A DNA stretch of 61,387 bases from a virus (Duplodnaviria > Caudoviricetes), in the IMG/VR virus record IMGVR_UViG_3300028103_000018, positions 1 through 61,387 of that record; one strand, given 5' to 3'. The translations under genes were made by a program, and so were the position numbers. This document shows positions 13,314-58,648 of this stretch, in pieces; positions within the stretch are counted from its first letter, which is position 1; each line of letters opens with the position of its first letter. The notes beneath the pieces are model-generated. The model did no database searches, had not been told where the DNA came from, and was given only the letters and a program-made list of their open reading frames with translations.

Positions 13314-16300
13314 TTATTTGTTCAACTGATTCATCAGTAGACCAGCGCCGGAAGTGAGGAGGCCGCTCAGGCCACCGCCAGCGGGACGGGCAAACTGGAC
13401 ACCCTCAACCTGCATGCCAGTCGGCACCCCGCCAAGGATCCCAGACAGGAAGTTCATCTGCTGATACGGGAAGTTCTGCTGATTGATGAAGTCTTGGTAC
13501 TGGAGATCCATAGCCTGACGGGTAAGGGCGTCGATGTACCCACCTCCCTGCTGCATAGCGGCAAGACGCTGAAGCTCAAGCTGCTGTGCCATGCCAGGGA
13601 TGCCCATCAGTGTGCCGCCCATACCAGCCAGACCTTGAGCGCCAGCCTGCGCCTGCTGTAGCGCCGCAAGTTTGTTGCCGAAGGCTTGCTGCCTAGCCTG
13701 CTGTCTTTCCGCCGAAGCCTGCTTGATCGCATCAAGCTGCATCTGGCTGATGCCAAGACCTGCGGCCTGATTAGCCTTCGCGGCTTCCAGCCCAGCCTGG
13801 GTGCCGAGTTGCTGAGTCCCGATAGCAGCGCCAAGATTCGCCTGACCAGCCGTGAGTCCAGCCTGCTGATTGGCCAACTGAGCCTCCAGGTTCGCCCGAA
13901 GGTTTGCCTGCTGGGAGGCGAGAGAAGCAGCCCGGTCGCGTTCAAACTGAGCCTGAGCAGACTCGAATGCACGCTGAGTACCTGCCGCCTCAATATCACC
14001 CAACTGGCGCTGAAGAGCTTCCTCGGCCATGCCTTCCTGAATAGCCTGCCTGGAGCCACCGAAAGCACCCGAGCGCACAGCGGCAGCACTTCGGCCAGCT
14101 TTCTGCATAGCGGCCTGACGTTGGGCCTCTCGCTTCTGGGTTTCAGTGACAGCCCGTTGGTACGGAGACATGTACTGTTCAGCCTGGGGAGTGCCGAACT
14201 CACCGACCTGGGTCCTGCCAGCGGTTACGCCAGTAGGCATCTGCATCTGAGGAGCAGAAAGATTGGAGACAGAGATAGGAGATCCGATCCCCATCTTCGA
14301 GATGTCCCCCATCTTCTCCATCAAATAGCTCTCTTGCTCCTTGGGGGCCGCGCCCATCCCAGTAAGGCCAAGCTGATCGAGGAGGTTTAGGCCAGCGCCA
14401 GCGGAAGTCCCGGCAATATCCGCAGCCCAATTCACATTCGACACGCCCTTGCCGAAGTCAGTGCCAGGAAGAATGCCAGTGTACTCCTGCTTGTCGGCAC
14501 CGATCATTTTCCCGTAGACACTGGGAAGATCGCCAAGGTTGCCAAGAGCGCCGCGAGTAAGGTTGCTGACGGTGTACCCAACTCCAGGGGTGTATTGACC
14601 GAAATCTCCACCCATCGTCAGGTTTCGCTGACCACCGTACACAGGAGGCGCATTGAATATCGAAGTGCCAACCTGAGCGTTCGGATTCACCATGTTCCAG
14701 AACCCAGCAGCCCCACCGGGACCGCCAAAGCCTCCGCTCGTCGGGGTCTGGGCCACGCCAAATCCACCTAGATTCTGGGGAGGGGGAGTCGCTTGGGCCA
14801 TGCCGAACCCACCGCCATCATTCTTCCTGATAGCGCCACCCTTGCGGTAGTTCCTTACCTTGCCGTCATCACCGATGTCGAACCGAGCGAGAGTGCCGCC
14901 GCCAGCGTATCCCTCGGTGTTCTTGCGAACCCACTCATCTTCTTCCTGAGCATTGCGGGCGGTAGTGGCGATTGGATAAGAAAGAGATTGAAGTGCGTAC
15001 TTCTCATCCTCACTGGCCCCACCTCTCTTGTCCGCCTGCGCCATGTAAGCAGGAGATAGACCGCGAACACCAGATACATCAGCCCCGCGTCCAGCGATAG
15101 GTTCGCCAATATCTCCGCTGAAATCAGCTGGAGGATTTTTGGTTCTGTCAAATCCAGAGTCGCCAGCGCCGCCCCTTCGATCAACGGGTGCCGCAACCGA
15201 CGACTGACCCGATGAAGCAGCAGGTCTCCCGATCGGAGATGTCGCAGCGCCGGAGGTATAGGCCTGGGTGTTCTGCTGGATAAGCCTGTCGATCTGAGAA
15301 GTATCCCCACCCCCAGCAGCAATCTCAGCACGAAGCCCAGCAAGAGACTGCGTCATCTCGCTAGGAGTCCTGGCGCGAGATACGCCATCAACAGTGATAT
15401 TCCCCAGAGCCTGCTGCACAAGGCCAGCATTCAACTGAGCGCCATCTCCAAAGTCCAGAATGTTTTGCGGGGGAGGTGCAACTGGACCGACTGGATTCGT
15501 CCTGGAAACTCCAGCACCAAGCAGCGAGGCGAGACCAGCAGCCTGCTGATCAGTAGCGTACTGAGCCGGGTTGTACCCACCAGCGCCCTGGGATTCAGCG
15601 GTAGTCCCGGCAGCGCCAGAAGCAAACTGAGGCAGAACAGCAGCAGAAGAGGAGGTCCCGACAGGGGGAGCGCCGATCACACCTTGAGGCCGAGACGGAG
15701 TGGATGCACCAGGAGTAATCCCAGTAGATCCGGTAGCCCTCGTTGCGCCACGGGATCCAGTGCCAACATTGCTTCCGGCACCAGTCGCAGCAACAGGCCC
15801 ACGGGTCGAGGTGCTAGATCCAGAGTCAGATACGCCGCTAGAGATGTTGGGCTGAGGTTGGTAGGTACTCACGTTGGTGCCAGAGATACCGGGAACGCTC
15901 CAGGTAGAAGCATCTCCACCACCGCCAAGCTCACCAAACGGACCCCTGATAACGGGATTCCTGACAGCGCCAGAGAGAATAGACTTGAGCAGATCATCCT
16001 GGGGCGCTCCAGAATCTTCAACAACTTCACCCTTCAAGGTCTCCGGTGCCTGCGCCCGAATAGCGGCATACTTGTCGATCAACTCGCCAAGGTCACCACC
16101 TCCAGCCATCGCCACAACGGGCTTGTACTTCTCAGGAATGTAGGTGCGGGTCTTCGGATCCCAAACCATGCCCAGGATCTTCGGCATCTGGCCGGAGGCC
16201 ATAGCCAAGGCCTTGGCGATTCCGCTATCCATCTCTTGAGTATCGGTGCGAGTGTCGCCACCGCCAGCAGGAGCGCCACCGCCAGCGCCAGAGGCAGGAG

Positions 16301-33010: not shown

Positions 33011-33922
33011 TTAGGAAGCGCCAGGGCTACCATACACCCCAAGGGGGTCAGAATAACCTACTGAATAGCGCTCGCGTCCCTTGTACCGCATATTGCCCGT
33101 CTCGAAGTCGCCTTCCGCCGAGGTCTTCAGCGCAACACGCTCGAACATCTTCAGGCCGTTCGGCACATCCGTCTTCAGGAACCACGCATTCGTGTCCGTC
33201 AGCCAGTGGTTGACCGTGTAGCCTTCCGGCACCGACGACAGGTTGTAGATCGCGTTGATGTCGTTGTCAGCGGTGCTGGTCCGCAGAACCGACTTCAACA
33301 GGCGCTCCGCAACGAACATCAGAGCGGGCGGGACGATCAGCTTGCGGGGCTTCGCAGCGATCAGCAGGCCACGTTCGTCCGTCCACCCGGCGATCTGGAT
33401 GATCGCAGCCTCAAGCGAGGTTTCGTTGAGGTCAGCGCCAGTCGTCGGACGGTTGGAGTTCGTGCCACCCGTGATGAGCGGGTGATCCGTAGCGCAGAGA
33501 CGCTTGCCGTCACCGCCGGTGTACGAAGCCGAGAACGCATTGTTCAACACGTTCGCGCCCTTCACCTGCTTGGTGTTGGCAAACGCACGCGCCAGAGCCT
33601 TGGTGTACCGCTGGGCAACGGAGACATACAGGTTGTCTTCCATCGCTTCTTCGGTGATCGCAAAGCCGAGAGCAATCGTCTCGTGCGTGTACCGGGAGGT
33701 ATACGCTTCCTGCGCGTTGTCGTAGGCAATCGCGCCACCTTCGGACTTAACCGGGGCAGTGCCAAAGCCAGACAGCTTCACTTCTTCTTCAAAGGCGCGT
33801 TCCGAGCTAGAGATCTCGAAGATCTCCTTATGCTCTTCGCCGTACCGAGCATACTCCAGACCGAACAAGGCGTTCAGGCCAGGGACAAGCTCTTTCAACA
33901 TCTGTGAACGAGTAATCGCCAT
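33011..33922 (-). CDS. Major capsid protein
   Basis: MAITRSQMLKELVPGLNALFGLEY...RERYS.G.SD..G.YGSPG; strong codon bias; SD AAGGAG. Confidence 0.9.
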   Translation of the reverse strand: MAITRSQMLKELVPGLNALFGLEYARYGEEHKEIFEISSSERAFEEEVKLSGFGTAPVKSEGGAIAYDNAQEAYTSRYTHETIALGFAITEEAMEDNLYVSVAQRYTKALARAFANTKQVKGANVLNNAFSASYTGGDGKRLCATDHPLITGGTNSNRPTTGADLNETSLEAAIIQIAGWTDERGLLIAAKPRKLIVPPALMFVAERLLKSVLRTSTADNDINAIYNLSSVPEGYTVNHWLTDTNAWFLKTDVPNGLKMFERVALKTSAEGDFETGNMRYKGRERYSVGYSDPLGVYGSPGAS

Positions 33923-39420: not shown

Positions 39421-41949
39421 TCAGTAGTAGTCTGCTTTCTTTCTCGAAATAGGCTCTTCATCTTCATCAGACTGCGTTGAGATAAAACCGCCCTGTCTAA
39501 ATCTCAACAGAGCCTGAGTAGAACTGTCAACAAGATCATCGTGGTCAGAGTTTGGAAAAGAAGCAAACTGCTCGATAACCTCTTCCGCCCATCGCAACGG
39601 AGGAGCATAGACAAAGCCAGAAGCAAATATGTCGCTTACGGCATTAACACGAGCAATCTTGTCATTCCCTCGTGATGGAGTGTAATCCTGTATCGGTATG
39701 CCCATGCGGCGCATTTCAAAGACAAGGGGAGCGCCAGCAGCTTTTGCTTCGATGATGCAAGAGTCTGGCTTCCAATACCTGTACTCCTCCAGTGCCTTCT
39801 GCTTCAACTCTGGGAACTCTAGCTTGTCCTGGAATGCGTTCAGCAGGATGATGTTCGTCCGCTTCTTCCCGTCAGAGTCGCTGTCGTAGAAGACGCCCCA
39901 GGTCGTGCAGGCAGAGTAGTCCGAGCGGGTTCCCTTGGTCAGCGCCGTGTCCCAGCTTTGGATGATGTATTCGCAGTTTGGCGGGTCGTCCCTGTCCCAG
40001 ATCTTCCACCAGTCCCTCTTTATAAGCGCACCTTCTTCTGAGGTGGGATTCTGCTGGTACTGGGCAGACCACTTTGAAACAGGAAGTTCGGCACGGATCT
40101 TGGAGAGTTCGTCCAGAGACCAGAATTCAGGCCAGAGCGGCTGGCCGGAGGGCATGATGGCCGGGAACTCGATGACTTCCCACTCGTCCACGCCATCTCT
40201 CTGCGCTGCTGCTTTCAATATTTGCCCACAGAGATCACGCTTGCTCCAGCGCGTCATGACGACCACGATGGCACCTCCAGGCTGAAGACGCTGCCTGGGG
40301 CCTGATGTGTACCACTCATACACACCATCGTAGATTGCTGGATTTGTTGCAGCCAGAGTAGCTTCCTGTTCGGAGTTGTGGGTAACGACATACCCCCTGC
40401 CAGCCAGGAAGAGTCCATCTGGCCTATTCACGGTGATGCACTGAACGTCTCCCCGCAGGTCGGTCTTCTCGATCTTATAGGACCTCTGCCTCTTGTCGGT
40501 TGGAGTCCTGGTTCTCTCTCTCTTTCGCGGGAGCCTACAGCACCCGAACAACTTGAAGTTGACCCTATAGACAGTGGACTCGCTATACCCCTTGGCTTCG
40601 TATTGCTTGACCGACGCCTTGACCCCAAGGCTATGCACGAGTTCCCTCAGGCCAGAAGAGAGGAGGCGGTTCGTGTTGTTGAAGGAACACTGCCCGTCGA
40701 TGGTCACATTGCCATCAGAATCCATCAACCCCTGAATCAAGGAGAGGCGCTGCTCAACGGAAGATGTGAAATATTCCTCTGGGATGTGCTTGTTGTTGAG
40801 AACCCCGATGTCCCTCAACTTCACCATCAGCTTTAGAGCGCCAAAGGAGTACGGGTCAGCGTGATCTGTAGTCTCATACCCCGCAAGTTCAAACTGAGAA
40901 CGGATGAACTGAATATCGATGGTGTCGGCGCTTATCCTGCCCAAACTGGAAGTGCCGTTGCCAAGCCAGTAGCCGAGGACGTATGGGTCAATCGGCAGGT
41001 CCTTGTGCGGGTATTGAACCTCGTGGTGCCGAGGAAGGCATGGCCTGTTTGGCTTCGACCATTCCGCAAGCTCCCTGGCTGTCGCGTTCTTGACCTTGGC
41101 CTTCTTGATATTCGTGTCGGACATGTAGGGCCAGAGATGCCCGCCATCACACATGATGGATTCCCCATCATCCGTCGTCAGGCGATAGAGTTCCCTGTCC
41201 TTCCAGACCTCAGACTTCGCCAGCACCTCAACCGGAAGACCGTCAGGGCCGTACACAAAGTCGCCAACACGAAGCTCCTCGACAGTCTTGAAGCCATTTG
41301 GTGTTGGTATGCATTCAGTGGTAAGGAGTGCATGAGGGTCATCAATAATTAAAAGGTCACTCCCTTTACCACTTACAGATCCCCCGACGCCAATGGCAAA
41401 GTACTCACCCTGCTTACTGGTGTTCCACCTTCCTGCTGCTTTGGAATCTGATGACAAGGCGACTCCAGGGAATACTGTTTGGTAATGACTGCTACCCACT
41501 AGATTCCTGACCTTTCTACCGAACCCAACGGCCAATTCGGCTGTGTGAGAGGTTTGGATGATCTTTCGATCAGGATACTTCCCCAAGTACCATGCAGGCA
41601 AAAGATATGAACTGAATTCGCTTTTTGAGTGACGAGGCGCCATGTTGATGATGAGACGCTTACATTTGCCTTCAGCCACCCTCTCGAATGCGTCTGCCAT
41701 GATCGCATGGTGCCGACCAGGAATGAACGCAGGCCACATCTCCTTGACGAAGTCTATGAACTTGGTCTGGCACGCCTGGACCTTCAACTGCTTCTCATAC
41801 GCTTCCAGCAGGCTCATCAACTCCACCTGCTCGTGGTACGGCAGCTTCTTCGCGTTCTGGATGATGGTGTCGATCTGCTGCGGAGTGTACTTCCCCGCAA
41901 GGACATTCCTTATATTCACACCACCATCATCTCCCACCCAGTGCCACAA
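39421..41949 (-). CDS. terL: Terminase large subunit with intein
   Basis: MAPRHSKS (Walker A), LLIIDDPH (Walker B), QSWDTA and HDDLVDS nuclease motifs; likely start GTG 41919. Confidence 0.95.
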   Translation of the reverse strand: MWHWVGDDGGVNIRNVLAGKYTPQQIDTIIQNAKKLPYHEQVELMSLLEAYEKQLKVQACQTKFIDFVKEMWPAFIPGRHHAIMADAFERVAEGKCKRLIINMAPRHSKSEFSSYLLPAWYLGKYPDRKIIQTSHTAELAVGFGRKVRNLVGSSHYQTVFPGVALSSDSKAAGRWNTSKQGEYFAIGVGGSVSGKGSDLLIIDDPHALLTTECIPTPNGFKTVEELRVGDFVYGPDGLPVEVLAKSEVWKDRELYRLTTDDGESIMCDGGHLWPYMSDTNIKKAKVKNATARELAEWSKPNRPCLPRHHEVQYPHKDLPIDPYVLGYWLGNGTSSLGRISADTIDIQFIRSQFELAGYETTDHADPYSFGALKLMVKLRDIGVLNNKHIPEEYFTSSVEQRLSLIQGLMDSDGNVTIDGQCSFNNTNRLLSSGLRELVHSLGVKASVKQYEAKGYSESTVYRVNFKLFGCCRLPRKRERTRTPTDKRQRSYKIEKTDLRGDVQCITVNRPDGLFLAGRGYVVTHNSEQEATLAATNPAIYDGVYEWYTSGPRQRLQPGGAIVVVMTRWSKRDLCGQILKAAAQRDGVDEWEVIEFPAIMPSGQPLWPEFWSLDELSKIRAELPVSKWSAQYQQNPTSEEGALIKRDWWKIWDRDDPPNCEYIIQSWDTALTKGTRSDYSACTTWGVFYDSDSDGKKRTNIILLNAFQDKLEFPELKQKALEEYRYWKPDSCIIEAKAAGAPLVFEMRRMGIPIQDYTPSRGNDKIARVNAVSDIFASGFVYAPPLRWAEEVIEQFASFPNSDHDDLVDSSTQALLRFRQGGFISTQSDEDEEPISRKKADYY
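40375..41331 (-). mobile_element. Class 3 intein (319 aa) with LAGLIDADG domain, inserted after Walker B
   Basis: Begins ALLTT (Ala1), block B GGHLW, block F VQCITV, ends VTHN/S; LGYWLGNG and GLMDSDG motifs. Confidence 0.9.
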
Positions 41950-41980
41950 CGGTAGAATCTATACGAGGGGAAAAGGCTGA

Positions 41981-42265
41981 ATGGAAACTTCTTGGATCTC
42001 CATTGGGATCACCGCTTTGGTTCTGATCGTGCAACTCACGAACAGATACAACAAAGACGGAGCGGCTTCCGAGATCAACATCCGAAGCCTTGAGAATTCA
42101 ATCACCCAAGAGATGGCGAAGATCCAGGTCCAGATCGCCAAGCTACCCGACGACCTGATGACAAGAGTCGGGCAGATCTACGTTACCAGCGACAGGTACA
42201 TCGCTGAACTCGAAGGCATTCGCGCTAGGCTCCGCAACGTAGAGCAGTCGATCAACAATCAATAG
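41981..42265 (+). CDS. Membrane-anchored coiled-coil protein (holin/spanin-like?)
   Basis: Single N-terminal TM helix then heptads. Confidence 0.55.
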   Translation: METSWISIGITALVLIVQLTNRYNKDGAASEINIRSLENSITQEMAKIQVQIAKLPDDLMTRVGQIYVTSDRYIAELEGIRARLRNVEQSINNQ

Positions 42266-42271
42266 CGCCAG

Positions 42272-42305
42272 AAAAAAGGGCTTGCCCAATTCGTTGACAA
42301 GCCCT
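42272..42305 (-). terminator. Rho-independent terminator
   Basis: AGGGCTTG/CAAGCCCT stem followed by a T-run on the minus strand. Confidence 0.7.
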
Positions 42306-42356
42306 GTACACCAAACCGATAGGAGACTTTCGGAGCGCCCAGCCGTCAGACTGGAC
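42272..42356 (-). ncRNA. Candidate ~85-nt sRNA with anti-SD loop
   Basis: Extended -10 TGA-TAGGAT (42371-42363), two hairpins, loop AAGUCUCCUA, terminator. Confidence 0.5.
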
Positions 42357-42374
42357 AGACCCATCCTATCACAC

Positions 42375-42635
42375 TCATCTGCTTCCATAAACCCTGATCT
42401 CGTAGACCCCGTCCACGATCTTCATACCGTACTCTGAATCCTCTCCAGGCTCCACCAAGCAAGACTCAACCCAACTCATAACCTCAGTTCTTTCGTACCG
42501 GACAACCCTACCCTTGTACTTGAGATACGAAGGCCCGTAGCCTATACTGCGCCAGTGCTTCAGGCATGGGATTGAGATCCTTGTGTACTCAGACAACTCC
42601 TGTTCTGTCATGAGCATAGTGGCGTCTGGATTCAT
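42375..42635 (-). CDS. AlpA/excisionase-like HTH protein
   Basis: LMTEQELSEY..IS...LK.WR..G.GP.Y.K....VRY...V..W. Confidence 0.8.
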   Translation of the reverse strand: MNPDATMLMTEQELSEYTRISIPCLKHWRSIGYGPSYLKYKGRVVRYERTEVMSWVESCLVEPGEDSEYGMKIVDGVYEIRVYGSR

Positions 42636-42647
42636 AGACCGAGAATA

Positions 42648-42908
42648 TCAATACTCGATCTTGAAAGTCCTTCTGCCGTCCTTAAACCCCACATAGTTGG
42701 ACAGGAACGGCTTTCCTCCATTGAAGAGCTTGACGGTGTCAGCGAGGTGTTCCACCCACTCCTCTCCTTCCTTTACCTTCTGCTCTTCCCTGGCGATCTC
42801 TTCTGCCAGCGCCGAATCAATCTGAGTACTCGTCAGCTTGCCCATGCTCTTCGCCTTGCGCCGTAGAACTCTTTCGGCTTCTTGTTGAATCAGCTTGTCT
42901 CTTTCCAC
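42648..42908 (-). CDS. Hypothetical protein
   Basis: GTG start after SD GAGGAG; helical composition. Confidence 0.55.
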   Translation of the reverse strand: MERDKLIQQEAERVLRRKAKSMGKLTSTQIDSALAEEIAREEQKVKEGEEWVEHLADTVKLFNGGKPFLSNYVGFKDGRRTFKIEY

Positions 42909-43209
42909 CTTTGCTCCTCTTTGTGATCTTCCATCCCCCAGGCGGCATGCCGTACATGTACTCGGCGCACATGACGAGGTGGTCTCCCCAAGGCGAGGCG
43001 CAAGTCTGTCGCATAGCGGCACGCCCTTCCTTCAGGAACAGTTCCCACTTCGTCGGCTCCTTGCGCATGATGATCTTGCGCTTGAGTTCTGGGAACTCCC
43101 CGATAATCTCAGCCGCATCCCGATAGGGATTAGCGCCGGAATACAGGTCCTCTTGGTTCGCAATGAACTCCGACAGGCTCAGGGAGTTCAGCCACTCCTG
43201 GTATAGCAT
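42817..43209 (-). CDS. Hypothetical protein
   Basis: TACACT 6 nt upstream of ATG 43209. Confidence 0.5.
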   Translation of the reverse strand: MLYQEWLNSLSLSEFIANQEDLYSGANPYRDAAEIIGEFPELKRKIIMRKEPTKWELFLKEGRAAMRQTCASPWGDHLVMCAEYMYGMPPGGWKITKRSKGGKRQADSTRSRKSSTAQGEEHGQADEYSD

Positions 43210-43340
43210 GAACACAGTGTACTACTGTGGTTCATGCCGTGCAATAGGGGCTACTCGGAGGCGGATGAGATACCTCGGGGAAACCCCTATTGCACAATGG
43301 TTACCCCAGTCAAGGGTGAGCCTTGATTGTATCATTTTTA

Positions 43341-43368
43341 TTGACCAGAATCCCAACGCTGGTAGAAT
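43341..43368 (+). promoter_or_regulatory. Sigma70-type promoter facing the non-coding region
   Basis: TTGACC-N16-TAGAAT with TGn extension and an AT-rich upstream tract. Confidence 0.7.
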
Positions 43369-43374
43369 GGAATT

Positions 43375-43990
43375 GAGAGTCTGCTCGAAACTGCGGCTTG
43401 CCGCTGAGAACAAAAGGCAAACTTTTCATGCCGGTTACAACCAGTCCCGGTGTTGGTGCGAGGGGTTGCGGTGAGAGATGAGACCGATCCGCGTAGTAAA
43501 CTCATCAGCCAGCTCGGTTCAGACGCCCCGCAGTGAATCTGGGTGAGCCAGTAAGGGGTCTAACGGTCCACCGAAAGGTGTCCCAGGCGCAAGAGTCTGG
43601 ATGAGGTTGCTACGGAGGCATGGCCCCGATAGATTGTCCCGCTTCGTGGACTTGAGATAAGGGCGCAGGTGAAACTCCAGATCCGTAGCCGAGAGGACAG
43701 GTTGGTGCCACACCAGATAAGGCACCTGTGAAGTAGCGACGGTGGCTCCATACCGGATAGCCTAGTTCACAACGAGAGGGAGGTTACCTCTCGTGTGTCC
43801 ACGCTCTGGTTCACCACCCGGATAGAGGGGTCGGGTTGGTGCTTGAGAAAAAGGGGGGTGGGTCCCCGGGAGGGGGGAAGTCCCCCTCCCGTTATTGTCG
43901 CGCTCATGATCAAGCAGTCCGGCCCTCGTCCCTGAGGGTCGAGACAAGCGCGACGAATAACCAAGCGGGAAAGAGGCAAGCTGAACCTCA
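43375..43990 (+). ncRNA. Candidate large structured ncRNA (~600 nt)
   Basis: No credible ORF; about ten helices including long-range ones; GAAA and CUUG tetraloops; G-U pairs favour the + strand. Confidence 0.6.
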
Positions 43991-44007
43991 AAGACCCTCA
44001 AAGAAAA

Positions 44008-44085
44008 AACACTGTACGGATGATCCGCGCTAACGGAAACCGGGCTACAGGATCACTCTCAATCAACACTGTACGGATGATCCGC
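44008..44085. repeat. Two identical 21-bp direct repeats AACACTGTACGGATGATCCGC
   Basis: At 44008-44028 and 44065-44085; internal dyad CGGAT-G-ATCCG. Confidence 0.9.
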
Positions 44086-44195
44086 CCTGGCTCTAACCGT
44101 GCTACCGAATGCGAAAACCAAGTACATGCACTCGGGATCTAAGGCGAGTACCGTCCATTCTCCTAGATCAATACTTCTGGCGCTAAACTATACCT

Positions 44196-44474
44196 GTGCA
44201 AGAGACACAAGAGAAGAGAAAGCATCTCCTGCTAGACACAGAGGTTGCAGAGATCCTGGGCGCTTCTATATCCAGCGTGAGGAAGTGGAGACTCCAAGGG
44301 AGAGGGCCACGCTTTGTTCGTCTTGGTGGCGCTGTAAGGTACAGAGAATCCGATGTACTTGAGTATGTCGAATCTGGTAGACTGTATACTGAAACAGGCA
44401 TAGGCCGCACAAGGAGCAACCGTGGACACCTCGTTGAACAAAGACGCAATCGAGAGTCTTCTGAGAGAGAATGA
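44196..44474 (+). CDS. AlpA/excisionase-like HTH protein
   Basis: LLDTEVAEILG.S..SVRKWR..G.GP.FVRLGGAVRYR. Confidence 0.85.
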   Translation: MQETQEKRKHLLLDTEVAEILGASISSVRKWRLQGRGPRFVRLGGAVRYRESDVLEYVESGRLYTETGIGRTRSNRGHLVEQRRNRESSERE

Positions 44475-44697
44475 AGTAGCCAAGATCCTAAACATATCTG
44501 TTGTAAAGGTCAGGCTACTCAGAAGGTTTGGTGGAGGTCCAGAGTTCATCAGGATCGGTAAGGCAGTACGCTACCGAAGGGATGACATCCGGCGCTTCAT
44601 CGACAGTGCCACCTCATTCGAGACCATCTCCGGCAAGGTTGCTCCCAAGCGTGAGCCTATTACCCTGAGCGAAATCTTCTCCAAGGAAAGCGAGTAA
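44422..44697 (+). CDS. AlpA/excisionase-like HTH protein
   Basis: LLRENEVAKIL.IS......R..GGGPEFIRIGKAVRYRRDDI. Confidence 0.85.
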   Translation: MDTSLNKDAIESLLRENEVAKILNISVVKVRLLRRFGGGPEFIRIGKAVRYRRDDIRRFIDSATSFETISGKVAPKREPITLSEIFSKESE

Positions 44698-45032: not shown

Positions 45033-45108
45033 TGGCGCTCCCGGCAGGATTCAAACCTGCGACCTACTTCTTAGGAGGAAGTCGTTCTATTCGCTGAACT
45101 ACGGGAGC
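45033..45108 (-). tRNA. tRNA-Arg(CCU), CCA encoded
   Basis: 76-nt cloverleaf: acceptor GCTCCCG/CGGGAGC, anticodon arm ACTTC-CTCCTAA-GAAGT, T arm GCAGG-TTTGAAT-CCTGC. Confidence 0.92.
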
Positions 45109-45114
45109 TTGGCA

Positions 45115-45936
45115 CTACAGAATATCCGCAACTTCCTCGACGATGTGCCGGAACTGAACCCAGCCCTGGAAGTTCCCCTTCTGCACATCCTTGCTCGTCA
45201 GGGGACGCGCCACATGCTCGAAGGGAGACAGGTGCGGCGGCATCGCGTTCTTCAGCTTCTTGAAGAGGTCCATGTCCTTCTGTACGCTGTATGTGCCGTC
45301 GTGATTCAGGTAGGACACACGGGCGCACCGGGCAACAGACATCGCCATACAGGTGAACTTCGGCACGGAGGTCAGTTCTTCGGGCTGAATGTAGGGCAGG
45401 TGGAAGTCCCCTTCGGCCAGATGCAACGGCACGCTAGCGTCAATCGCATCGCGCATGACCCGCGCCAGTTGTCTGATCTCCGGCTGGGCATCGTGATTCA
45501 GGCGCTGCGAGAAGAAGTTCTCCCACTCCGTCGCGGAGATGATGGCCTTGTGCCAGAGAAAAGGCTCCAGCAGTCTGTTCACAACTTCCTTATGAATCCC
45601 GGCGCTTGCCATAATCCTGGCAGAGTACACTGCATTGGCGGCAGCAGATTTCCAGGCATTCTCTGCCGCCCACTTCTGCTGCACGGACACCTGCGGCCCT
45701 GACTGCATCCCAGGTTGGTTAGCGCCGAGGTAGATAGGGATGTACGGATCCTCCTCTACTTCTTGCAGGCGCTTGTGAATTGGGATGGCGCGAGAGGAAG
45801 CGGAGTTCCTGGAGAAGTCACGGTGTGTGTTGACTTGCGCCAGGATGAACCTTGGGAACTGGCACTCCATTGTGATAAGCCTAACGCCCTTAGGCGATAC
45901 AGAGTCTGCTACTACCTTTGCAGAGATTTGCTTCAA
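45115..45936 (-). CDS. thyX: FAD-dependent thymidylate synthase (ThyX/Thy1)
   Basis: NTHR.FSRNSASSRAIP, NRLLEPF, SVARCARVSY, HLSPFEHVA; TTG start after AAGGAG. Confidence 0.9.
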   Translation of the reverse strand: MKQISAKVVADSVSPKGVRLITMECQFPRFILAQVNTHRDFSRNSASSRAIPIHKRLQEVEEDPYIPIYLGANQPGMQSGPQVSVQQKWAAENAWKSAAANAVYSARIMASAGIHKEVVNRLLEPFLWHKAIISATEWENFFSQRLNHDAQPEIRQLARVMRDAIDASVPLHLAEGDFHLPYIQPEELTSVPKFTCMAMSVARCARVSYLNHDGTYSVQKDMDLFKKLKNAMPPHLSPFEHVARPLTSKDVQKGNFQGWVQFRHIVEEVADIL

Positions 45937-48320: not shown

Positions 48321-48923
48321 CTACTCCCCCTCCCCGCCCCCGGTGGGGGTCTCCGTATCCCCCATATCGCTTGAGGGTAGCTGGGTGCATTCGGTGTCCA
48401 AAGTTGGACCGCTGGAGTCTTCAGCGCCTACGATAGGCGATGAAAGCCCTAGCAAAGATTGGAGTCTTGCCGCAAGGGTATCCACCATCGCGCCGGATAG
48501 CGCGGTATTCACCTCATTTGCTTGTGGCTCTTCGAACACGGAAGCATATCGCGTGCGACCAACCAGTTCTAAGGCTTTCAGTCGGGTGATGTCTGATTCA
48601 GTCTCACTGGCGGTTCGTGTCAATCCATCCATGACGAATGTTTGTAGCTTCTGTTTGTTCTCCCACCAGCGCGCAGTTCTCTCCGCCTCCATTGCATCCA
48701 TTGCTAGTTTGACGCTAGTCGCCTGCGAAGTCTTTACCGCGTTCGTTTGTAGCCCCTTCAAACTACTACCCTTGTAGTTGTAAGCCTGTCTGTAAGCCTC
48801 AGCTTTGCTCAACCCACCATAGACCAACCCCTCGGCAAACTTGCGCTGTTTAGGCGTCAACCGCGCCAATATCTCATTCACCTTCAATCGCTTACCGTCC
48901 GCATGTACTCTCGTTTGCGCCAT
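48321..48923 (-). CDS. terS: Terminase small subunit
   Basis: LTPKQRKFA.G...G....EAYRQAY HTH and D..RLKALEL.G motif. Confidence 0.7.
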   Translation of the reverse strand: MAQTRVHADGKRLKVNEILARLTPKQRKFAEGLVYGGLSKAEAYRQAYNYKGSSLKGLQTNAVKTSQATSVKLAMDAMEAERTARWWENKQKLQTFVMDGLTRTASETESDITRLKALELVGRTRYASVFEEPQANEVNTALSGAMVDTLAARLQSLLGLSSPIVGAEDSSGPTLDTECTQLPSSDMGDTETPTGGGEGE

Positions 48924-49038
48924 ACGTCTATTCTACCCCTACACGTGCATATGCACTCATCCCCCATTCCCGTTCCTATCAAATTGCGTGCGCACGCACA
49001 CACATTCTATTTTCCACCCGTAAACCGTTGATTCTACA

Positions 49039-49054
49039 TGTCCAAATTTGGACA
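49039..49054. promoter_or_regulatory. Perfect 16-bp palindrome TGTCCAAATTTGGACA, copy 1
   Basis: Also at 49808, 50095, 51038 and 54449; variants at 50216 and 48395. Confidence 0.85.
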
Positions 49055-49086
49055 AAAAATAAATCAGAAAATATCGCATCAACCCA

Positions 49087-49116
49087 TTGACACCATAAAC
49101 CACTATCGCTTACCAT
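49087..49116 (+). promoter_or_regulatory. Early sigma70 promoter
   Basis: TTGACA-N18-TACCAT. Confidence 0.6.
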
Positions 49117-49166
49117 GGGTTTGTTGGCACACGGTGCTACATCAAACCAAACCAAGGACACTCACA

Positions 49167-49793
49167 ATGAACACCAATTACCTGCTCACCTCTACCCCCC
49201 CTTCCGCCAAGGAGAATTACGAAATCATTCGGTCTAAGCAGGCCGAAAAAGCCGCGAACTTCATTGATTGCGCTATTGCGGTCTTTTGGATCAGAGAACT
49301 AAAGCAGTATGAGCAGTTGGGGTTCACGCGCCTTGAAGTCTTCCTCGCGTCACAAGGAATAGAAATGAGCAAGGCCGATTATCACAATAAGGCCAATCTT
49401 GGCGAGATGTTGCGTTGGATTAACGCAACCCGCGAAGAGTTGGTAGATTGCGGCCCTTCCGCACTTCAGGAAATTTCCCGCCTAGCCAAAGGCAAAGGCA
49501 TGGCGGAAAAGAACAGGGCCGCTATTTGCCGCCTAATCAATGGAAAGGCGAAGGGGCTGCTAGATGTAGATCAGGTCAAAGAACAGGTTCGGGCGATCTT
49601 GGGCGGCGACAAAAAACAGGCGGATTCCACCCCCAAGCCCCCCGCCGCCCCGGCCCCCGTCGAAACCGAAGACAACACCGACGAAACCGCGCCCACCTCT
49701 ACCGATTGGCGCACCAAGTACCGCGCCATGCTGGGACGCGCGGCCGACGAGGCCGACTTCCTCGCGATGTTGGCCGACCTGCGGGGGGAGTAA
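49167..49793 (+). CDS. Putative DNA-binding protein (DUF3102-like)
   Basis: IRELKQYEQLGF..LE.FL...GI.MS....Y pattern; Pro/Thr-rich tail; flanked by palindromes. Confidence 0.5.
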   Translation: MNTNYLLTSTPPSAKENYEIIRSKQAEKAANFIDCAIAVFWIRELKQYEQLGFTRLEVFLASQGIEMSKADYHNKANLGEMLRWINATREELVDCGPSALQEISRLAKGKGMAEKNRAAICRLINGKAKGLLDVDQVKEQVRAILGGDKKQADSTPKPPAAPAPVETEDNTDETAPTSTDWRTKYRAMLGRAADEADFLAMLADLRGE

Positions 49794-49807
49794 CTCCCCC
49801 CTTCAAG

Positions 49808-49823
49808 TGTCCAAATTTGGACA
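49808..49823. promoter_or_regulatory. 16-bp palindrome, copy 2
   Basis: TGTCCAAATTTGGACA just upstream of an RBS. Confidence 0.85.
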
Positions 49824-49836
49824 AACAGGAGACAAG

Positions 49837-50028
49837 ATGAGACTAGAAAAAGCGGAAAAGATCAAACAACTGGCCCTCGAAGTCCACAAGACAGTGGCAA
49901 GGATGTCTGCACTCGAAGGCGCAGAATGCAGGAGTAAGGCGTCCGCAGAGAGGGCAGAAGAGCGCCTCATGGAGCTAGAGCGCAAGCTGAATGAAGCTAT
50001 GCGCCAACTACACTCTATGACGTACTAG
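49837..50028 (+). CDS. Small coiled-coil protein
   Basis: SD AGGAG. Confidence 0.65.
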   Translation: MRLEKAEKIKQLALEVHKTVARMSALEGAECRSKASAERAEERLMELERKLNEAMRQLHSMTY

Positions 50029-50091
50029 TCGAAACGCGGGCTATGCCCGCTTCTACGGGAATTAGCCTACCCGTACTGATGAGACAGGCTA
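50028..50091 (+). ncRNA. Type II hammerhead ribozyme 1 with pseudoknot
   Basis: GTC-GAAA-stem III-TTC, stem I TACGGG/CCCGTA, CTGATGA, GAC; loop TAGCCT pairs with 3' AGGCTA; predicted cut after 50053. Confidence 0.85.
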
Positions 50092-50094
50092 GAG

Positions 50095-50110
50095 TGTCCA
50101 AATTTGGACA
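50095..50110. promoter_or_regulatory. 16-bp palindrome, copy 3
   Basis: TGTCCAAATTTGGACA. Confidence 0.85.
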
Positions 50111-50145
50111 AACATGGTAGGGCGTGAACAAACTCCATGCCCTAC

Positions 50146-50175
50146 TTGACAAATAAACTATCAGTGTGTTACACT
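50146..50175 (+). promoter_or_regulatory. Early sigma70 promoter
   Basis: TTGACA-N18-TACACT with TGn; palindrome variant TGTCCAAAATTGGACA at 50216-50231. Confidence 0.7.
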
Positions 50176-50249
50176 GTAGTTAACAGTGGCACAGACCGCT
50201 GAACAACAAGCTGAGTGTCCAAAATTGGACACGCGATAGGAGACAAGTT

Positions 50250-50981
50250 ATGAAGTACACCGCTGGATTCAGCAAATTGCTGACCTATGGCACGGCGAAG
50301 ATCGACAAGTCCCGCGCCAACTCAAACGTGTGGGAGGGCGTGGTTTACATGTCCCCTGCGGACGAGTCTGTCCCGTACGGTGGCGCGAATATGTGCGCCA
50401 ACGCTACGGTGGGTTGCAAGTCCCTGTGCCTGGGCAAGTATGCGGGACGCATGCATATGCCCAATGCCATGCGGGCGCGGCTCAATCGCACGTTCCTGTA
50501 CTTGCGGGAACGCGACAGATTCTATGCCCAGCTGGGCAAAGAGATCGACGCGCACGTCCGGCGCTGCCGCCGGAAGGGTATGCGTCCCGCCATCCGGCCT
50601 AACGGGGCGCAGGATCTGCGAGGACTAGGCGCGTGGGTGGCGCGGTACTGCGCGAAAAAGTACGGGAACGAGGTCGCGGTTTACGATTACACAAAGATCG
50701 CGCCGTCCCAGATCGACGGCTACCACCTCACCTACAGCCACTCCGAGCGCCCGGAATCCTTGCGCGTGTCCCTCGATTGGCTGGCGCGTGGCGGTAGCGT
50801 GGCGGTAGTTTTCGCCGTCCGCAAGGGCCAACCGCTACCAGAATCCTGGCACGGATACCCTGTCATCGACGGGGACAAGTCGGACGCGAGGTTTATGGAC
50901 GCGCCCGGTTCCGTAGTCGGTCTGCGGATCAAGGGGAGCTTCAAGAAGGCCATCGGCAACCCGTTTGTGGTTCTAGCGTAG
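50250..50981 (+). CDS. Gp88-family Cys-rich protein
   Basis: C.NAT.GC..LCL, RPNG..D, YDYTK, YHLT.S, VIDGD.SD.RF.D..G.VVGL. Confidence 0.75.
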   Translation: MKYTAGFSKLLTYGTAKIDKSRANSNVWEGVVYMSPADESVPYGGANMCANATVGCKSLCLGKYAGRMHMPNAMRARLNRTFLYLRERDRFYAQLGKEIDAHVRRCRRKGMRPAIRPNGAQDLRGLGAWVARYCAKKYGNEVAVYDYTKIAPSQIDGYHLTYSHSERPESLRVSLDWLARGGSVAVVFAVRKGQPLPESWHGYPVIDGDKSDARFMDAPGSVVGLRIKGSFKKAIGNPFVVLA

Positions 50982-51037
50982 CGCCGGATGTATAGGGTAG
51001 GCGCGTGCCTACCCTTACCAGAGTGTCCAATCGAAGA

Positions 51038-51053
51038 TGTCCAAATTTGGACA
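51038..51053. promoter_or_regulatory. 16-bp palindrome, copy 4 (extra half-site at 51024)
   Basis: TGTCCAAATTTGGACA upstream of an RBS. Confidence 0.85.
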
Positions 51054-51075
51054 AACCAAACCTCAGGAGAATACC

Positions 51076-51354
51076 ATGCCTACCCTCACCCCTTCCCTCG
51101 AAACGCCAATGCGGCGCGCCATCAACAAAAACCTTCTCAAGTCTATCGCCGGGCAGCTGATCTTCTGCCCCGTCTGTAGCGACATTATGGACTACCGCCG
51201 CACCGTGGCCGTGTCATTCATGCGCGGGGACAACCCCGTGGCAACTAAGGGTTGCTGCGGCAGCTGTTTTGATGACGTGATGCGCGGCAATGCCGAACGC
51301 ATCGCGCAGGAACATAACCTGACCCTCGATATCGTCGACGGGCGCGCCAAGTAA
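51076..51354 (+). CDS. Zn-ribbon hypothetical protein
   Basis: CPVC...CCGSC; SD AGGAG. Confidence 0.7.
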   Translation: MPTLTPSLETPMRRAINKNLLKSIAGQLIFCPVCSDIMDYRRTVAVSFMRGDNPVATKGCCGSCFDDVMRGNAERIAQEHNLTLDIVDGRAK

Positions 51355-51381
51355 CAGAACCAAACCAAACCAGGAGTGTAT

Positions 51382-51705
51382 ATGTACATCATCATCTCGC
51401 GGCACCCTGCCGCTATCGAGTTCATCCGCGCCAACGATGCGCGATTTCTGGCGGCACCCGTCATCACGGGCAACGCCACGCCCGACGATGTGCGGGGCAA
51501 GGTCGTAGCGGGTAATATCCCGCTATCCCTCGCATCAATGGCGGATGAGGTGGTAGCCGTCGAGTTTGACGGCGCGCCTCCGCGCGGGGCGGAGTACACC
51601 GCCGCCGACATGGTCGCCGCTGGTGCGCGTCTGGAAGCGTATGTGGTCAAGCGCAGCATCGCGTTCGACTACTGCGTGACGCACTCTCGCAGCGATGGGT
51701 ACTAG
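51382..51705 (+). CDS. Csx16 (Cas_VVA1548)-like protein, putative cOA ring nuclease
   Basis: ISRHPAAIEF...GKVVAGNIPLSLA...PRGAEYTA.DM...GARLEAYVV matches the Csx16 pattern SRH.GA.EW...G.LP..LA...RG.EL......GARL..Y.V as recalled. Confidence 0.75.
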   Translation: MYIIISRHPAAIEFIRANDARFLAAPVITGNATPDDVRGKVVAGNIPLSLASMADEVVAVEFDGAPPRGAEYTAADMVAAGARLEAYVVKRSIAFDYCVTHSRSDGY

Positions 51706-51768
51706 GTCGAAACACGGGGGTTCCCGTGTCTGTGAGGGATAGCCTCCTCACACTGAAGAGACAGGCTA
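51706..51768 (+). ncRNA. Type II hammerhead ribozyme 2 with pseudoknot
   Basis: GTC-GAAA-CACGGG/CCCGTG-TC, stem I TGTGAGG/CCTCACA, CTGAAGA, GAC; pseudoknot TAGCCT/AGGCTA; GUC site, cut after 51730. Confidence 0.92.
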
Positions 51769-51778
51769 GGAGGGTTGC

Positions 51779-51940
51779 ATGAAAGCCAAACCGTGGAGAG
51801 TTATCTCCACTGCCGATCAGGACGGCAGAAACCACACCATCAGCATCTTGGGGCCTGGAGAACTGACCCCTGACGATGCGTTCGTTATGTTCCAGTGCGA
51901 CACCCTCGAGGACGCCATCCTCGCCATGGAGGAGGAGTAA
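51779..51940 (+). CDS. Small acidic hypothetical protein (53 aa)
   Basis: SD GGAGG immediately after the ribozyme. Confidence 0.6.
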   Translation: MKAKPWRVISTADQDGRNHTISILGPGELTPDDAFVMFQCDTLEDAILAMEEE

Positions 51941-52120
51941 ATGTATCGCTTGCAGATGAAATCAGGTGTCAAGCGCGACACCTGGAAAGACAGTAGCGGG
52001 TCGGGGTCTATCAGCAGTCTGAAAGACATTTGCACCGTTTGTCGGATGGACTACCGGATCATCGACGGTAGAGGAAAAGTGGTATGGGCCGATCTGTGGC
52101 CTAAAAAGGGGAGAAAATAA
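51941..52120 (+). CDS. Small hypothetical protein (59 aa)
   Basis: SD GGAGGAG; abuts both neighbours. Confidence 0.6.
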   Translation: MYRLQMKSGVKRDTWKDSSGSGSISSLKDICTVCRMDYRIIDGRGKVVWADLWPKKGRK

Positions 52121-52371
52121 TGTACATCAAAACTTTCGACGGCGCTGCCGTCATCTTCTGCGAAGAGCAGGACCGCACCTGCTCTCACCCGGACGGTCAC
52201 GAGTTGAACCAAGACCGGGGCGCTCTCAACGGGGAGTACGGAAGCTACTGCATCCACTGCTCCCACTATGTCGGGCGGGTCGAGTACTTCAGCGCGGCCA
52301 ACGGTGCCGAAGAGGCCCAGGCCTACGCCCAGGTCATGCTGGGCGCTACCGGACCTGTTGAGGTGCGGTAA
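52120..52371 (+). CDS. Cys/His-rich hypothetical protein
   Basis: TAATG coupling; CSHPDGH..CIHC. Confidence 0.6.
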   Translation: MYIKTFDGAAVIFCEEQDRTCSHPDGHELNQDRGALNGEYGSYCIHCSHYVGRVEYFSAANGAEEAQAYAQVMLGATGPVEVR

Positions 52372-52401
52372 GCGTCCAGCATTACTGGGAGTAAATCTAT
52401 T

Positions 52402-52596
52402 ATGTACATGACACAAGCGGAGCTGGCTTTAGCAGAGCGTACAGCCAATATCCTCGCAGAACTCATTAGCTCTATCGAGTCTCGTGATCCCGGGCACAGG
52501 GAGATCGCCGTCCTAAAAGATGCATACGGGAGTATTACACACGCCGCAGTGCGCGGCATTCCCCGAGTCAACGTGGAAGAGGTGCGCCATGCGTAA
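52402..52596 (+). CDS. Hypothetical protein
   Basis: SD GGAG; operon context. Confidence 0.55.
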   Translation: MYMTQAELALAERTANILAELISSIESRDPGHREIAVLKDAYGSITHAAVRGIPRVNVEEVRHA

Positions 52597-52801
52597 TCCA
52601 CCTCTCGACGCTGAAGTCTGCCGCGAGATCGTGCGCGAGATCCTCGACGAAGAGGGTCCGCTCACGGTCGGGCAGCTTGCCATCCGCATGGGGCGCGTGT
52701 TCCAGGTGAACACCGCTTACCTTGCGATGACACTGTGCAAGAAGCGCAGTGGGTTCGTGATCGACAACGGCATCGTATATGCCACGCGCCGGGGAAAGTA
52801 A
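52589..52801 (+). CDS. Small winged-helix-like protein
   Basis: IVREILDEEGPLTVGQLA pattern; SD GAGG. Confidence 0.55.
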   Translation: MRNPPLDAEVCREIVREILDEEGPLTVGQLAIRMGRVFQVNTAYLAMTLCKKRSGFVIDNGIVYATRRGK

Positions 52802-52811
52802 AGGAGAACAA

Positions 52812-52985
52812 GTGACCAGGAAGAATGCGCGATTCAGCATCTCCGAGATCGAGGATGCAGATGGAAACATAACAGAGTGGATCGTGTCCGACAGTGAGAA
52901 CGATTACGACCCGGTGTCTTTCGGCTCAGAGCAAGAGGCGCTGGATGAGGTAGAAACGCTAATGGAATCGGAGGGTATCAAATGA
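52812..52985 (+). CDS. Small acidic protein
   Basis: GTG start after AAGGAG; D/E-rich. Confidence 0.6.
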   Translation: MTRKNARFSISEIEDADGNITEWIVSDSENDYDPVSFGSEQEALDEVETLMESEGIK

Positions 52986-57657: not shown

Positions 57658-57688
57658 CGACAAACATCAGGAGACTTCAGGAGACTTT

Positions 57689-58648
57689 ATGATTACCGAC
57701 TACACTGCACTGCTATCCATGGGGAAGGCGGAGATCCTTCTCCATGACGGGACCACTGTCGAGAAAGACATTATCTGGAACAAGGACTGTGCCATCGACA
57801 TCCAGGGAAAGCGAGGGGAGTTCTCGTACCAGAGGATTCGCTGGGACGGAGAGAGGTGGAGGGCGGTTGAAATCTATGTGCGGGGTAACGAGGACAGGGC
57901 TATATCCCGGCTGCTGGTCGAAAGGTTTCTCCAAGTTGTTCCCTGCTCTTCCCCTCGCAATCGGCTGAAAGAGTTGGCCTTATTCCTTGGGCAATCGGTT
58001 CGCAGTCTGTCTGCGGCGAACCATGTTCTTGAACTGGTCAATCGCAGGCTGCTGAAACTGGAAAGAGAACCCAAGGCTTTCGGCAGGCCAGCCTACACTG
58101 GCTACTACTCGCATAACGTATTTATCAAACGAGAGGATAAGTACACCGACAGGCAGCGGGATGTAAGAAGGTTGTCATCTAAGCGCAACTCCGATCTCAA
58201 AGCCCTGGTCTCCTCGTGCGTGAACGCTTACAGCAATTTCTGCGCCGACTTCAACTACGGCTCCAGCATGGCGCTGGCCGACAGGAGAAGGGGGTGGACC
58301 CTGCGGTTTCGGGACATGAAAGTGGTTGCCTACAACGATGACGGCAACATCAAGAGGGAGGTGGACCTCTCTCCCTTCGACCTTACTTCTCCCTCTTTTG
58401 TGGCGCTCTTTGGAATCCGCAATGCGTTCTGCGCCAGTATCGTAGAGGAAACAGGTGATACTGTATGCCTCCAGGTGTACAGCAAGAACTCAAAGCCCAA
58501 GGGATATATTTGCGCCGACAAGAACAGCAAGGGGCATATCTTCAACCAGAAGGACCCTGGCAGGTGGATCAGCCTGTACAAGTACTCGCTTGATGATATC
58601 GGAGCCAGCAAGGCAGAGGCGTATGCCAGAATGCTTGCCAAGTCCTGA
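57689..58648 (+). CDS. Hypothetical protein
   Basis: 319-aa ORF with duplicated SD AGGAG. Confidence 0.7.
   Translation: MITDYTALLSMGKAEILLHDGTTVEKDIIWNKDCAIDIQGKRGEFSYQRIRWDGERWRAVEIYVRGNEDRAISRLLVERFLQVVPCSSPRNRLKELALFLGQSVRSLSAANHVLELVNRRLLKLEREPKAFGRPAYTGYYSHNVFIKREDKYTDRQRDVRRLSSKRNSDLKALVSSCVNAYSNFCADFNYGSSMALADRRRGWTLRFRDMKVVAYNDDGNIKREVDLSPFDLTSPSFVALFGIRNAFCASIVEETGDTVCLQVYSKNSKPKGYICADKNSKGHIFNQKDPGRWISLYKYSLDDIGASKAEAYARMLAKS

Follow-up and report, generated by a model that had tools for sequence, protein, structure and literature searches.

Few phage small RNAs (sRNAs) have known targets to our knowledge, and almost all of them come from model coliphages. The C4 RNA of P1 and P7 (immI) is processed out of the transcript that also carries its target, and its action is confined to one operon; P22 sar and lambda OOP are cis-antisense RNAs that overlap their targets. 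The CI RNA of P4 works by premature termination and replaces a protein repressor. On bacterial chromosomes, MicL and DapZ are Hfq-dependent sRNAs that are embedded in 3' untranslated regions (UTRs) and have an internal promoter, and bacterial RNAs of the RsaE/RoxS type use a C-rich anti-Shine-Dalgarno (SD) motif in hairpin loops to pair with many SD sequences. In T4, the protein RegA binds the ribosome-binding site (RBS) of early mRNAs and the protein RegB cuts GGAG. The C4 antisense RNA is described as controlling Ant (PMC8201110), and in a lambda study, PreS, LPR2 and 6S are phage Hfq-bound sRNAs, of which PreS targets host dnaN and alaS (10.1101/2024.10.31.621285).

The candidate sRNA described here would resemble C4 as a phage RNA of ~80 nt that pairs around the ribosome-binding region of mRNAs of its own phage and lies in a regulatory or immunity region. 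Unlike C4, it seemingly is transcribed from a promoter of its own and is the mirror of a leader common to many genes, and it had no match to C4 at E≤10 if C4 is among the families of Rfam release 15. With sar, OOP and P4 CI it would share a short phage RNA made by an own promoter or by processing, a terminator, and antisense silencing of phage genes; it differs from these three, with which it was compared through Rfam only, in that it is complementary in trans, and imperfectly, to leader and SD. The likeness to lambda PreS, LPR2 and 6S is that all are phage-encoded, end at terminators and belong to early or late operon contexts; PreS, unlike the RNA proposed here, acts on host genes. The layout also recalls MicL and DapZ, with a promoter at the end of the upstream coding sequence, a terminator shared with the mRNA and a seed between 5' hairpin and terminator. 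With the RsaE type and with T4 RegA and RegB it would have in common, respectively, a C/U-rich anti-SD motif and the silencing of a whole early class at the RBS, as we propose. In contrast to both, the anti-SD motif is joined to a stretch antisense to a CA-rich leader, from which class selectivity would follow.

The window analysed here is a complete IMG/VR virus record of 61,387 bp, in which the element occupies a 109-bp gap between two convergent genes. Upstream on the minus strand lies a gene for an 86-aa HTH_17 (excisionase/AlpA-like) protein (42375..42635, minus strand; Pfam PF12728, 29.2 bits; phrog_66), which is 71-73% identical in relatives and whose stop codon is 3 nt ahead of the TG of the -10 element. 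Three HTH_17 ORFs are found near the element, and PHROG adds a fourth small HTH ORF. On the other side, a plus-strand gene for a 94-aa protein with an N-terminal hydrophobic stretch (41981..42265) ends 6 nt from the terminator U run. Its product had no match in Pfam or PHROG. When compared to three relatives, 44/78, 44/66 and 45/83 of its substitutions fell in the third codon position and, judged by this bias, 41981..42265 is a real gene. Downstream on the minus strand follow the large terminase gene TerL, with a LAGLIDADG intein (39421..41949, minus strand; start near 41919-41949), and then a 36-kb structural block. We also considered a minus-strand ORF at 42388..42143 as coding and rejected it because it runs through the terminator.

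The sequence-only reading had proposed a minus-strand -10 element, two hairpins and a terminator, all of which are present in the sequence. The extended -10-like element TGaTAGGAT is located at 42371-42363 (hexamer TAGGAT, 42368-42363) and predicts a transcription start near 42356 on the minus strand. From this base, folding gives a 5' hairpin, H1, of the form GUCCAGUC-UGAC-GGCUGGGC (42356-42337), followed by the 31-nt seed GCUCCGAAAGUCUCCUAUCGGUUUGGUGUAC (42306..42336, minus strand), which contains CUCCU at 42325-42321 and GGUUUGG at 42317-42311. Sequence and fold place a weak hairpin, CCGA-AAGUCUCCUA-UCGG, at 42333-42316. They also place an intrinsic terminator with the stem GGGCUUGUC/GGGCAAGCCC at 42304-42278, a stem-loop of 9-10 bp directly 5' of a run of six U residues (42277-42272, minus strand). 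A terminator scan missed it because the loop has 9 nt and the scan was limited to 8, and a consensus promoter scan did not call the -10 element at 42363-42371. An 89-nt RNA that starts at 42356 is predicted to fold into three hairpins, H1, CCGA..UCGG and the terminator, at -34.2 kcal/mol (z = -3.27), which was equalled by 1 of 200 shuffled sequences. Rfam 15 gave no match to the element at the gathering threshold; at E≤10, one spurious 14-bit microRNA match was returned.

A search with the HTH_17 protein identified three related phage contigs (G1, G2 and G3), each of which carries the element directly after the HTH_17 stop codon. A covariance model, R1, was built from four lineages and run against the DNA upstream of 80 terminase relatives. 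Matches at E≤1 were obtained in 7 of 81 sources, namely the window, three training lineages and the loci L048 (E = 5e-10), L052 (2e-8) and L047 (0.13). At default filters, none of the other 69 TerL loci gave a match at E≤1. With the filters off, a search that covered 14 loci returned weak matches at the same place in L050, L051, L053 and L054 (E 0.35-1.5), where the element layout was confirmed by eye and by folding; 11 of the 16 weak matches lay elsewhere and were treated as noise. The element is thus present and syntenic in eight lineages, and all 10 loci with a TerL at least 79% identical and sufficient upstream DNA carry it. Among metagenome contigs, a pattern scan turned up 16 stretches; by their context, five of these have the element and 11 are chance, and the scan added near-identical strains only. 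The same kind of scan over GTDB genome contigs gave eight stretches, none with the element, and therefore no prophage or host lead from GTDB. By blastn, neither 41950-43300 nor 43283-44175 had a match in the phage collection. Scanning with the HTH_17 alignment found one more locus, 32% identical and followed by unrelated sequence, and scanning with the 94-aa protein found G2 only.

Comparison of these loci revealed which parts of the element are constrained. Positions T1, A2 and T6 of the hexamer are kept in all 10 sequences from the eight lineages (as TAGGAT, TAAGAT, TAGTAT, TATGAT, TACACT or TATACT/TATATT), and the next 6 nt are variable. TGn precedes the hexamer in seven of the eight lineages, so that the signature of a sigma-70 extended -10 promoter, TGn with T1, A2 and T6 conserved in relatives, is found here. 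We looked for a conserved -35 element across the eight lineages and found none. A 5' hairpin of 7-8 bp starts at or near the seventh nucleotide after the hexamer, and in five of the eight lineages the folded hairpin begins exactly at this predicted first base of the transcript. One-sided changes in G1 leave the pairing of H1 intact, and the quite different sequences at this place in G2, G5, G6 and G7 still form 7-bp hairpins. The G.U pairs of H1 are compatible with the minus strand only; a near-identical strain (L012) has a C.A mismatch within it. All eight lineages have a C/U-rich motif (UCUCCU, UCCUCCU or UCCCCCU) followed after 0-4 nt by UGGUU(U)G, and all eight have a terminator with a U run, whose stem cells are 97% paired over four lineages. 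The CCGA..UCGG hairpin is extended to 8 bp in G7. The 31-nt seed is 90-97% identical in G1-G3, compared to 68-78% for the flanking coding sequence. In the folds, most of it is either free or only weakly bound, and such a stretch, more conserved than its surroundings and open, is what is expected of an sRNA seed. Covariation over four sequences was modest, with 37 of 500 shuffles as high. On this comparative sequence evidence, the element is more than chance as a conserved RNA-like unit. Its unpaired conserved core, variable yet paired hairpins and promoter-like invariant positions match the profile of an sRNA gene and not that of a plain 3' end, and architecture and conservation together probably describe a separate small RNA gene of ~87 nt in the eight lineages.

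The same stretch could instead belong to the 3' UTR of the HTH_17 operon transcript, with no separate RNA, a protective compound hairpin and a terminator shared by the convergent units. The element begins 3 nt after the HTH_17 stop codon, the promoter scan called nothing at it, and an assembled RNA contig (X3, below) reaches 42382, upstream of the proposed start. In a transcript that starts upstream of the -10 element, and in such a transcript only, the minimum free energy fold contains an additional minus-strand helix, H0, between the 5' arm UGAUAGGA (42364..42371) and its partner UCCUAUCG (42317-42324), in which the -10 element itself (GAUAGGA) pairs with the seed 'loop' (UCCUAUC). This long form, with H0 and H1, folds at -42.7 kcal/mol, and G3 has one compensatory change in H0 from G-C to A-U; G2 and G7 have changes that keep pairing as G.U, with one mismatch each. 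However, the long fold reaches a z of only -2.09, with 9 of 200 shuffles as good, and H0 is absent in G5 and G6. The most conserved part of the element is the unpaired stretch and not the stems, the T, A and T of the hexamer are invariant with changes confined to its free positions, and a 3' end would leave the likeness to leaders described next unexplained. We therefore regard an exclusive role as a 3' UTR as unlikely.

The plus-strand replication-type ('early') genes at 49-58 kb, which include GP88-family, AAA and DUF2201/VWA genes, have a common leader. In it, a palindrome (for example GTCCAAATTTGGAC) is followed by a CA-rich element (for example ACCAAACC) and, after 0-3 nt, by AGGAGA(C). 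Reverse-complemented, the seed becomes ACACCAAACC-GAT-AGGAGAC and has the same layout. The sequence-only reading had pointed to single plus-strand sites, all of which are present as quoted. These are CGATAGGAGAC at 50234..50244, which lies 6 nt upstream of the start codon of the GP88-family gene (50250..50981; ATG at 50250), the tandem AGGAGACTT (57669) and AGGAGACTTT (57679-57688) before 57689..58648, and AGGAGAC at 49827 and 54472. The tandem site gave the best duplex among the 81 translation-initiation regions tested. Two more candidate targets on the plus strand are leaders of the family type, TTTGGACAAACCAAACCTCAGGAGAA before 51076..51354 (51046..51075) and AACCAAACCAAACCAGGAG before 51382..51705 (51352..51381). 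Taken one at a time, the quoted matches carry little information. The 11-nt and 10-nt RBS matches are at the level that chance gives a 31-mer with CUCCU, and the 11-nt match before gp88 is lost in G1, which has AAAACAGGAGAAG instead and a seed identical to that of the window in 30 of 31 positions; individual sites are therefore not evidence. At the place of the tandem site, 57669..57688, G1 carries ATAGGAGAC. The RBS of the major head protein gene (33011..33922, phrog_371) does read AGGAGAA, as had been stated, but the proposed discrimination between AGGAGAC and AGGAGAA does not hold; what discriminates is the shared CA-rich element of the leader.

We quantified the complementarity over 81 initiation regions of the 82 genes called by a self-trained codon model. 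Duplex energies were computed without accessibility, and the gene calls come from a simple home-made caller. A first duplex test against plain dinucleotide shuffles was set aside because shuffling destroys CUCCU; the controls used here held CUCCU in place and shuffled its flanks by mononucleotide or dinucleotide. Against these, the best ungapped match of the window seed over the 81 regions was unremarkable (402 of 1000 controls as good), and so were its minimum, top-5 and top-10 duplex energies (control fractions 0.43-0.57). In a naive genome-wide ranking G-rich coding stretches lead, and two of the 25 best duplexes are translation-initiation regions. The seed pairs with the 17 early leaders better than with the remaining 64 initiation regions, by -3.6 kcal/mol; of the controls, none of 300 with mononucleotide shuffling and one of 300 with dinucleotide shuffling attained this preference. 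The 'early' class behind this comparison was set by gene order and function after the leader motif had been seen.

Similar preferences for early leaders were obtained with the seeds of G1 (-2.6 kcal/mol; 0/300 and 2/300 controls) and G4 (-4.9 kcal/mol; 0/300 controls). The G5 seed showed no significant selectivity, with 59 of 300 controls as low, and no leader match of note came from G2, G6 and G7, which are partial contigs. As a second control, we used natural 31-nt stretches of each genome with CUCCU at the same offset. Nine of 174 such stretches in the window reached the value of the seed, and all nine are the true antisense of early leaders, compared to none of the 161 others that are not. 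Likewise, seven of 204 did so in G4, all of them antisense to early leaders, and none of 190 others. The G4 seed has an 18-nt perfect complement, CCCAAACCAACAGGAGGA, that spans CA-rich element and SD and ends 5 nt before the ATG of 15209..15496. The product of this gene has 95 aa, and the window, G1 and G5 lack a homolog of it. The G5 hairpin matches a structural gene over 14 nt. As to whether seed and targets change together in relatives, the picture is mixed: the window and G4 seeds each match the leaders of their own genome best, and the G5 seed does not. G3, the sole variant of the window type with a changed seed, is a 4.2-kb fragment without early genes. For the window, G1 and G4, these comparisons support a seed that is selectively complementary to the shared early-leader class; in the window, this does not extend to single sites.

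Our best explanation, which we hold tentatively and at somewhat less than an even chance, is an sRNA of ~87 nt that is transcribed from its own promoter and blocks early mRNAs by pairing with leader and SD, its seed being hidden by H0 in read-through RNA. The sRNA gene would run from 42356 to ~42270 on the minus strand, nested where the HTH_17 gene ends. Transcription would begin at the extended -10 promoter right after the HTH_17 stop codon, with the start site placed by prediction, and would be ended by the shared intrinsic terminator. The predicted RNA consists of the 5' hairpin, a mostly open stretch (CUCC...GUCUCCU-AUC-GGUUUGGUGUAC), and the terminator hairpin with its U tail. The open stretch would serve as an antisense copy of the leader module common to the early genes, and by pairing with several early mRNAs over both the CA-rich element and the SD it may block ribosome loading. 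In read-through RNA from the HTH_17 gene, H0 would sequester the seed with the -10 region, and activity would then be confined to the short RNA. We infer the separate transcript, its pairing in vivo, the repression and its timing. The trans-acting sRNA put forward by the sequence-only reading is supported in part, by its gene architecture, its conservation in eight lineages and its class-level complementarity, but G5 gives no signal for it.

That G5 lacks a leader signal, and that the single matches in the window are at chance, would also be consistent with a real sRNA that has its own promoter and acts mainly on host mRNAs or on the mRNA of the convergent 94-aa gene, in which case the likeness to leaders would only show that it arose from a leader module copied in inverted orientation. 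Such an RNA would have a gene-like architecture equal to that of our best explanation. Precedent is offered by PreS, a lambda sRNA that acts on host dnaN and alaS (10.1101/2024.10.31.621285). The element also overlaps the 3' end of the 94-aa gene mRNA in antisense, and its terminator abuts the stop codon. On the other hand, a mere relic would hardly be expected to keep a seed that is 90-97% identical and that, in the window, G1 and G4, still resembles the leaders; the 18-nt perfect match in G4 also speaks against one. Nothing in this analysis speaks positively for host targets. We consider host mRNAs or the convergent mRNA as main targets to be fairly unlikely.

The complementarity could, in principle, also mean that the conserved stretch acts as DNA or on the plus strand, as a protein-binding, packaging or recombination site, or as a leader, relic or active, of a lost or unseen gene. 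Read on the plus strand it is a hairpin followed by ACACCAAACC-GAT-AGGAGAC, like the early intercistronic modules. TerL is close by, and the 18-nt repeat in G4 is at the same time an inverted DNA repeat with copies 2 kb apart. In the window, however, the SD has no start codon after it, and the G.U pairs in H1, in H0 and in the terminator as well as the U run fit a minus-strand RNA. The hairpins vary in sequence and stay paired, which is a property of an RNA and not of a protein-binding site. We regard such a DNA or plus-strand function as highly improbable.

To relate the element to transcripts, we examined four river metatranscriptomes, in the form of contigs, among the 19 runs that contain part of the window. 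They come under four study codes but from the same year and habitat, and may belong to one campaign. Contigs covered the locus at 41942-42382 (X3), 41976-42332 (X1) and 41983-42268 (X9), so that the locus is present in RNA libraries as contigs that carry no strand, no ends and no species under 100 nt. The X3 contig extends 26 nt past the predicted start at 42356, which fits read-through RNA or a plus-strand mRNA. X3 and X9 showed no cover in 41000-41935 (TerL) and in 42404-42637 (most of HTH_17), and these uncovered parts are not interpretable. In X1, we observed adapter sequence directly behind 42332. This adapter could be the sign of a minus-strand 5' end within the seed, if the orientation of the library is as we judged it from the ends at 43391 and 44405 in other runs. 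By far the highest contig word depth in the four metatranscriptomes was found for a neighbouring structured RNA of ~450 nt at 43377-43828.

The X1 and X3 contigs bridge the terminator, down to 41942-41976, as would be expected if the element were the short terminated leader of the late structural operon. In that case, a constitutive promoter would be read through into the late genes only upon override of the terminator, as with lambda 6S RNA at tR'. The element is indeed the last minus-strand unit before TerL and the 36-kb structural block, and lambda 6S RNA is listed among Hfq-bound sRNAs in the lambda study (10.1101/2024.10.31.621285). Yet the bridging may come from plus-strand mRNA, since the contigs have no strand, and the 285 nt that separate terminator and TerL are taken up by a real gene on the plus strand. 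A genome-wide search for Phage_antitermQ (PF06530), the sole antiterminator family searched, gave no match. We rate a late-operon leader as improbable.

The preferred reading, an sRNA directed at early mRNAs, touches on how the phage might be kept silent. A match to Phage_integrase, the tyrosine integrase family, is found at 1502-1987 (80.9 bits), and HTH_3 (PF01381) and Peptidase_S24 (PF00717), by which a CI-type repressor would be recognised, had no match in the genome. This agrees with an earlier remark that the RNA might stand in for a missing repressor, and with an integrase-family gene and neither HTH_3 nor S24, a share of the RNA in immunity is conceivable. Going further, we can picture a temperate freshwater clade in which early genes are silenced by RNA only, where the sRNA and the 43377-43828 RNA constitute immunity or shut-off and the -10 element doubles as an anti-seed; we put this forward as a speculation that is quite doubtful at present.

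In conclusion, the element is probably a new phage sRNA family, to which we assign a target and a role by inference from sequence. It adds a candidate family from uncultivated river and lake phages whose gene anatomy is clear and whose proposed target class can be tested, and the 18-nt perfect sRNA-RBS pair of G4 is suited to reporter tests. Even if the proposed target is wrong, the element family and the strongly covered structured neighbour RNA would be new entries for the catalogue of RNA families. If it is right, the sRNA would be an RNA counterpart of the protein-based early-gene shut-off by RegA and RegB in T4, and might be part of an RNA-only immunity region.

We identified a structured RNA of ~450 nt on the plus strand (43377-43828) in an ORF-free region of the window. 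Its promoter, at 43341-43368 (+), reads TTGACC-16-TGgTAGAAT and is kept in G7 and G5, two of the related phage contigs. Contigs from four river metatranscriptomes, which are available without strand, cover the RNA from 43384/43391/43404 to 43695/43731/43739, and in three runs adapters stand immediately at both ends. The mean word depths of these contigs were 390.6, 238.8, 186.8 and 61.1, compared to 2-18 for other contigs on 41000-44300, contig word depth being a poor gauge of expression. Folding of five sequences with RNAalifold gave 116 pairs, 25 of which show two-sided compensatory change. The plain fold z-score was not significant and the RNA had no Rfam match at E<=10. A homolog search recovered it in G5-like and G7 contigs only; in the related phages G1, G2 and G4, another module occupies the corresponding position.

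Three ORFs of the HTH_17 type lie in the surrounding 42.4-44.9 kb, together with a further small HTH ORF. Here we also observed contig starts at 44404-44406 (+) in three runs, with adapter immediately in front, suggestive of transcription initiating there, 17 nt upstream of the HTH_17 gene 44422..44697. HTH_3, Peptidase_S24 and Resolvase had no match anywhere in the window genome, and a tyrosine recombinase gene (Phage_integrase match, 80.9 bits) lies at 1196-2050 (+). A tRNA-Arg (CCT) at 45033-45108 (-) adjoins the ThyX-like gene 45115..45936, and the large terminase gene contains a LAGLIDADG/Hom_end intein at ~40372-41332 (-). The G1 and G2 terminases are without intein, and their homology to the window skips exactly this stretch. 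Comparison with G1 further shows that the window ends, 1 and 61387, neighbour each other there (G1 24858/24870), which indicates that the window record either is a circular permutation or was opened at an arbitrary position. The G4 record is complete and carries direct terminal repeats.

Immediately 5' of the early-gene leaders, the CA-rich elements and SDs of the plus-strand replication-type block, we observed 6-7 copies of the palindrome GTCCAAATTTGGAC (window 48396-54463), one of which reads GTCCAAAATTGGAC. The same palindrome occurs once in G1 and several times in G4, and G5 (L130-L132) has another, CTGTCTCACAGTGAGACA, at the equivalent kind of place. These palindromes could be lineage-specific hairpins or operators. 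One GTCCAAATTTGGAC copy adjoins an Rfam match to the Hammerhead_II ribozyme at 50027-50093 (+; 38.8 bits; gathering score 37), located between gene 49837..50028 and the GP88-family gene.

The leaders may also bear on the origin of the locus encoding the candidate ~87-nt minus-strand sRNA. In G4, the sRNA seed is perfectly complementary over 18 nt to the leader and SD of gene 15209..15496, and the 8-mer CGAACAAT lies beside this match at both places (L127, ~13040-13080 and 15170-15204). Since CGAACAAT flanks the 18-nt repeat on opposite sides in the sRNA locus and the target leader, this arrangement hints that the sRNA locus was derived from rearranged leader modules.
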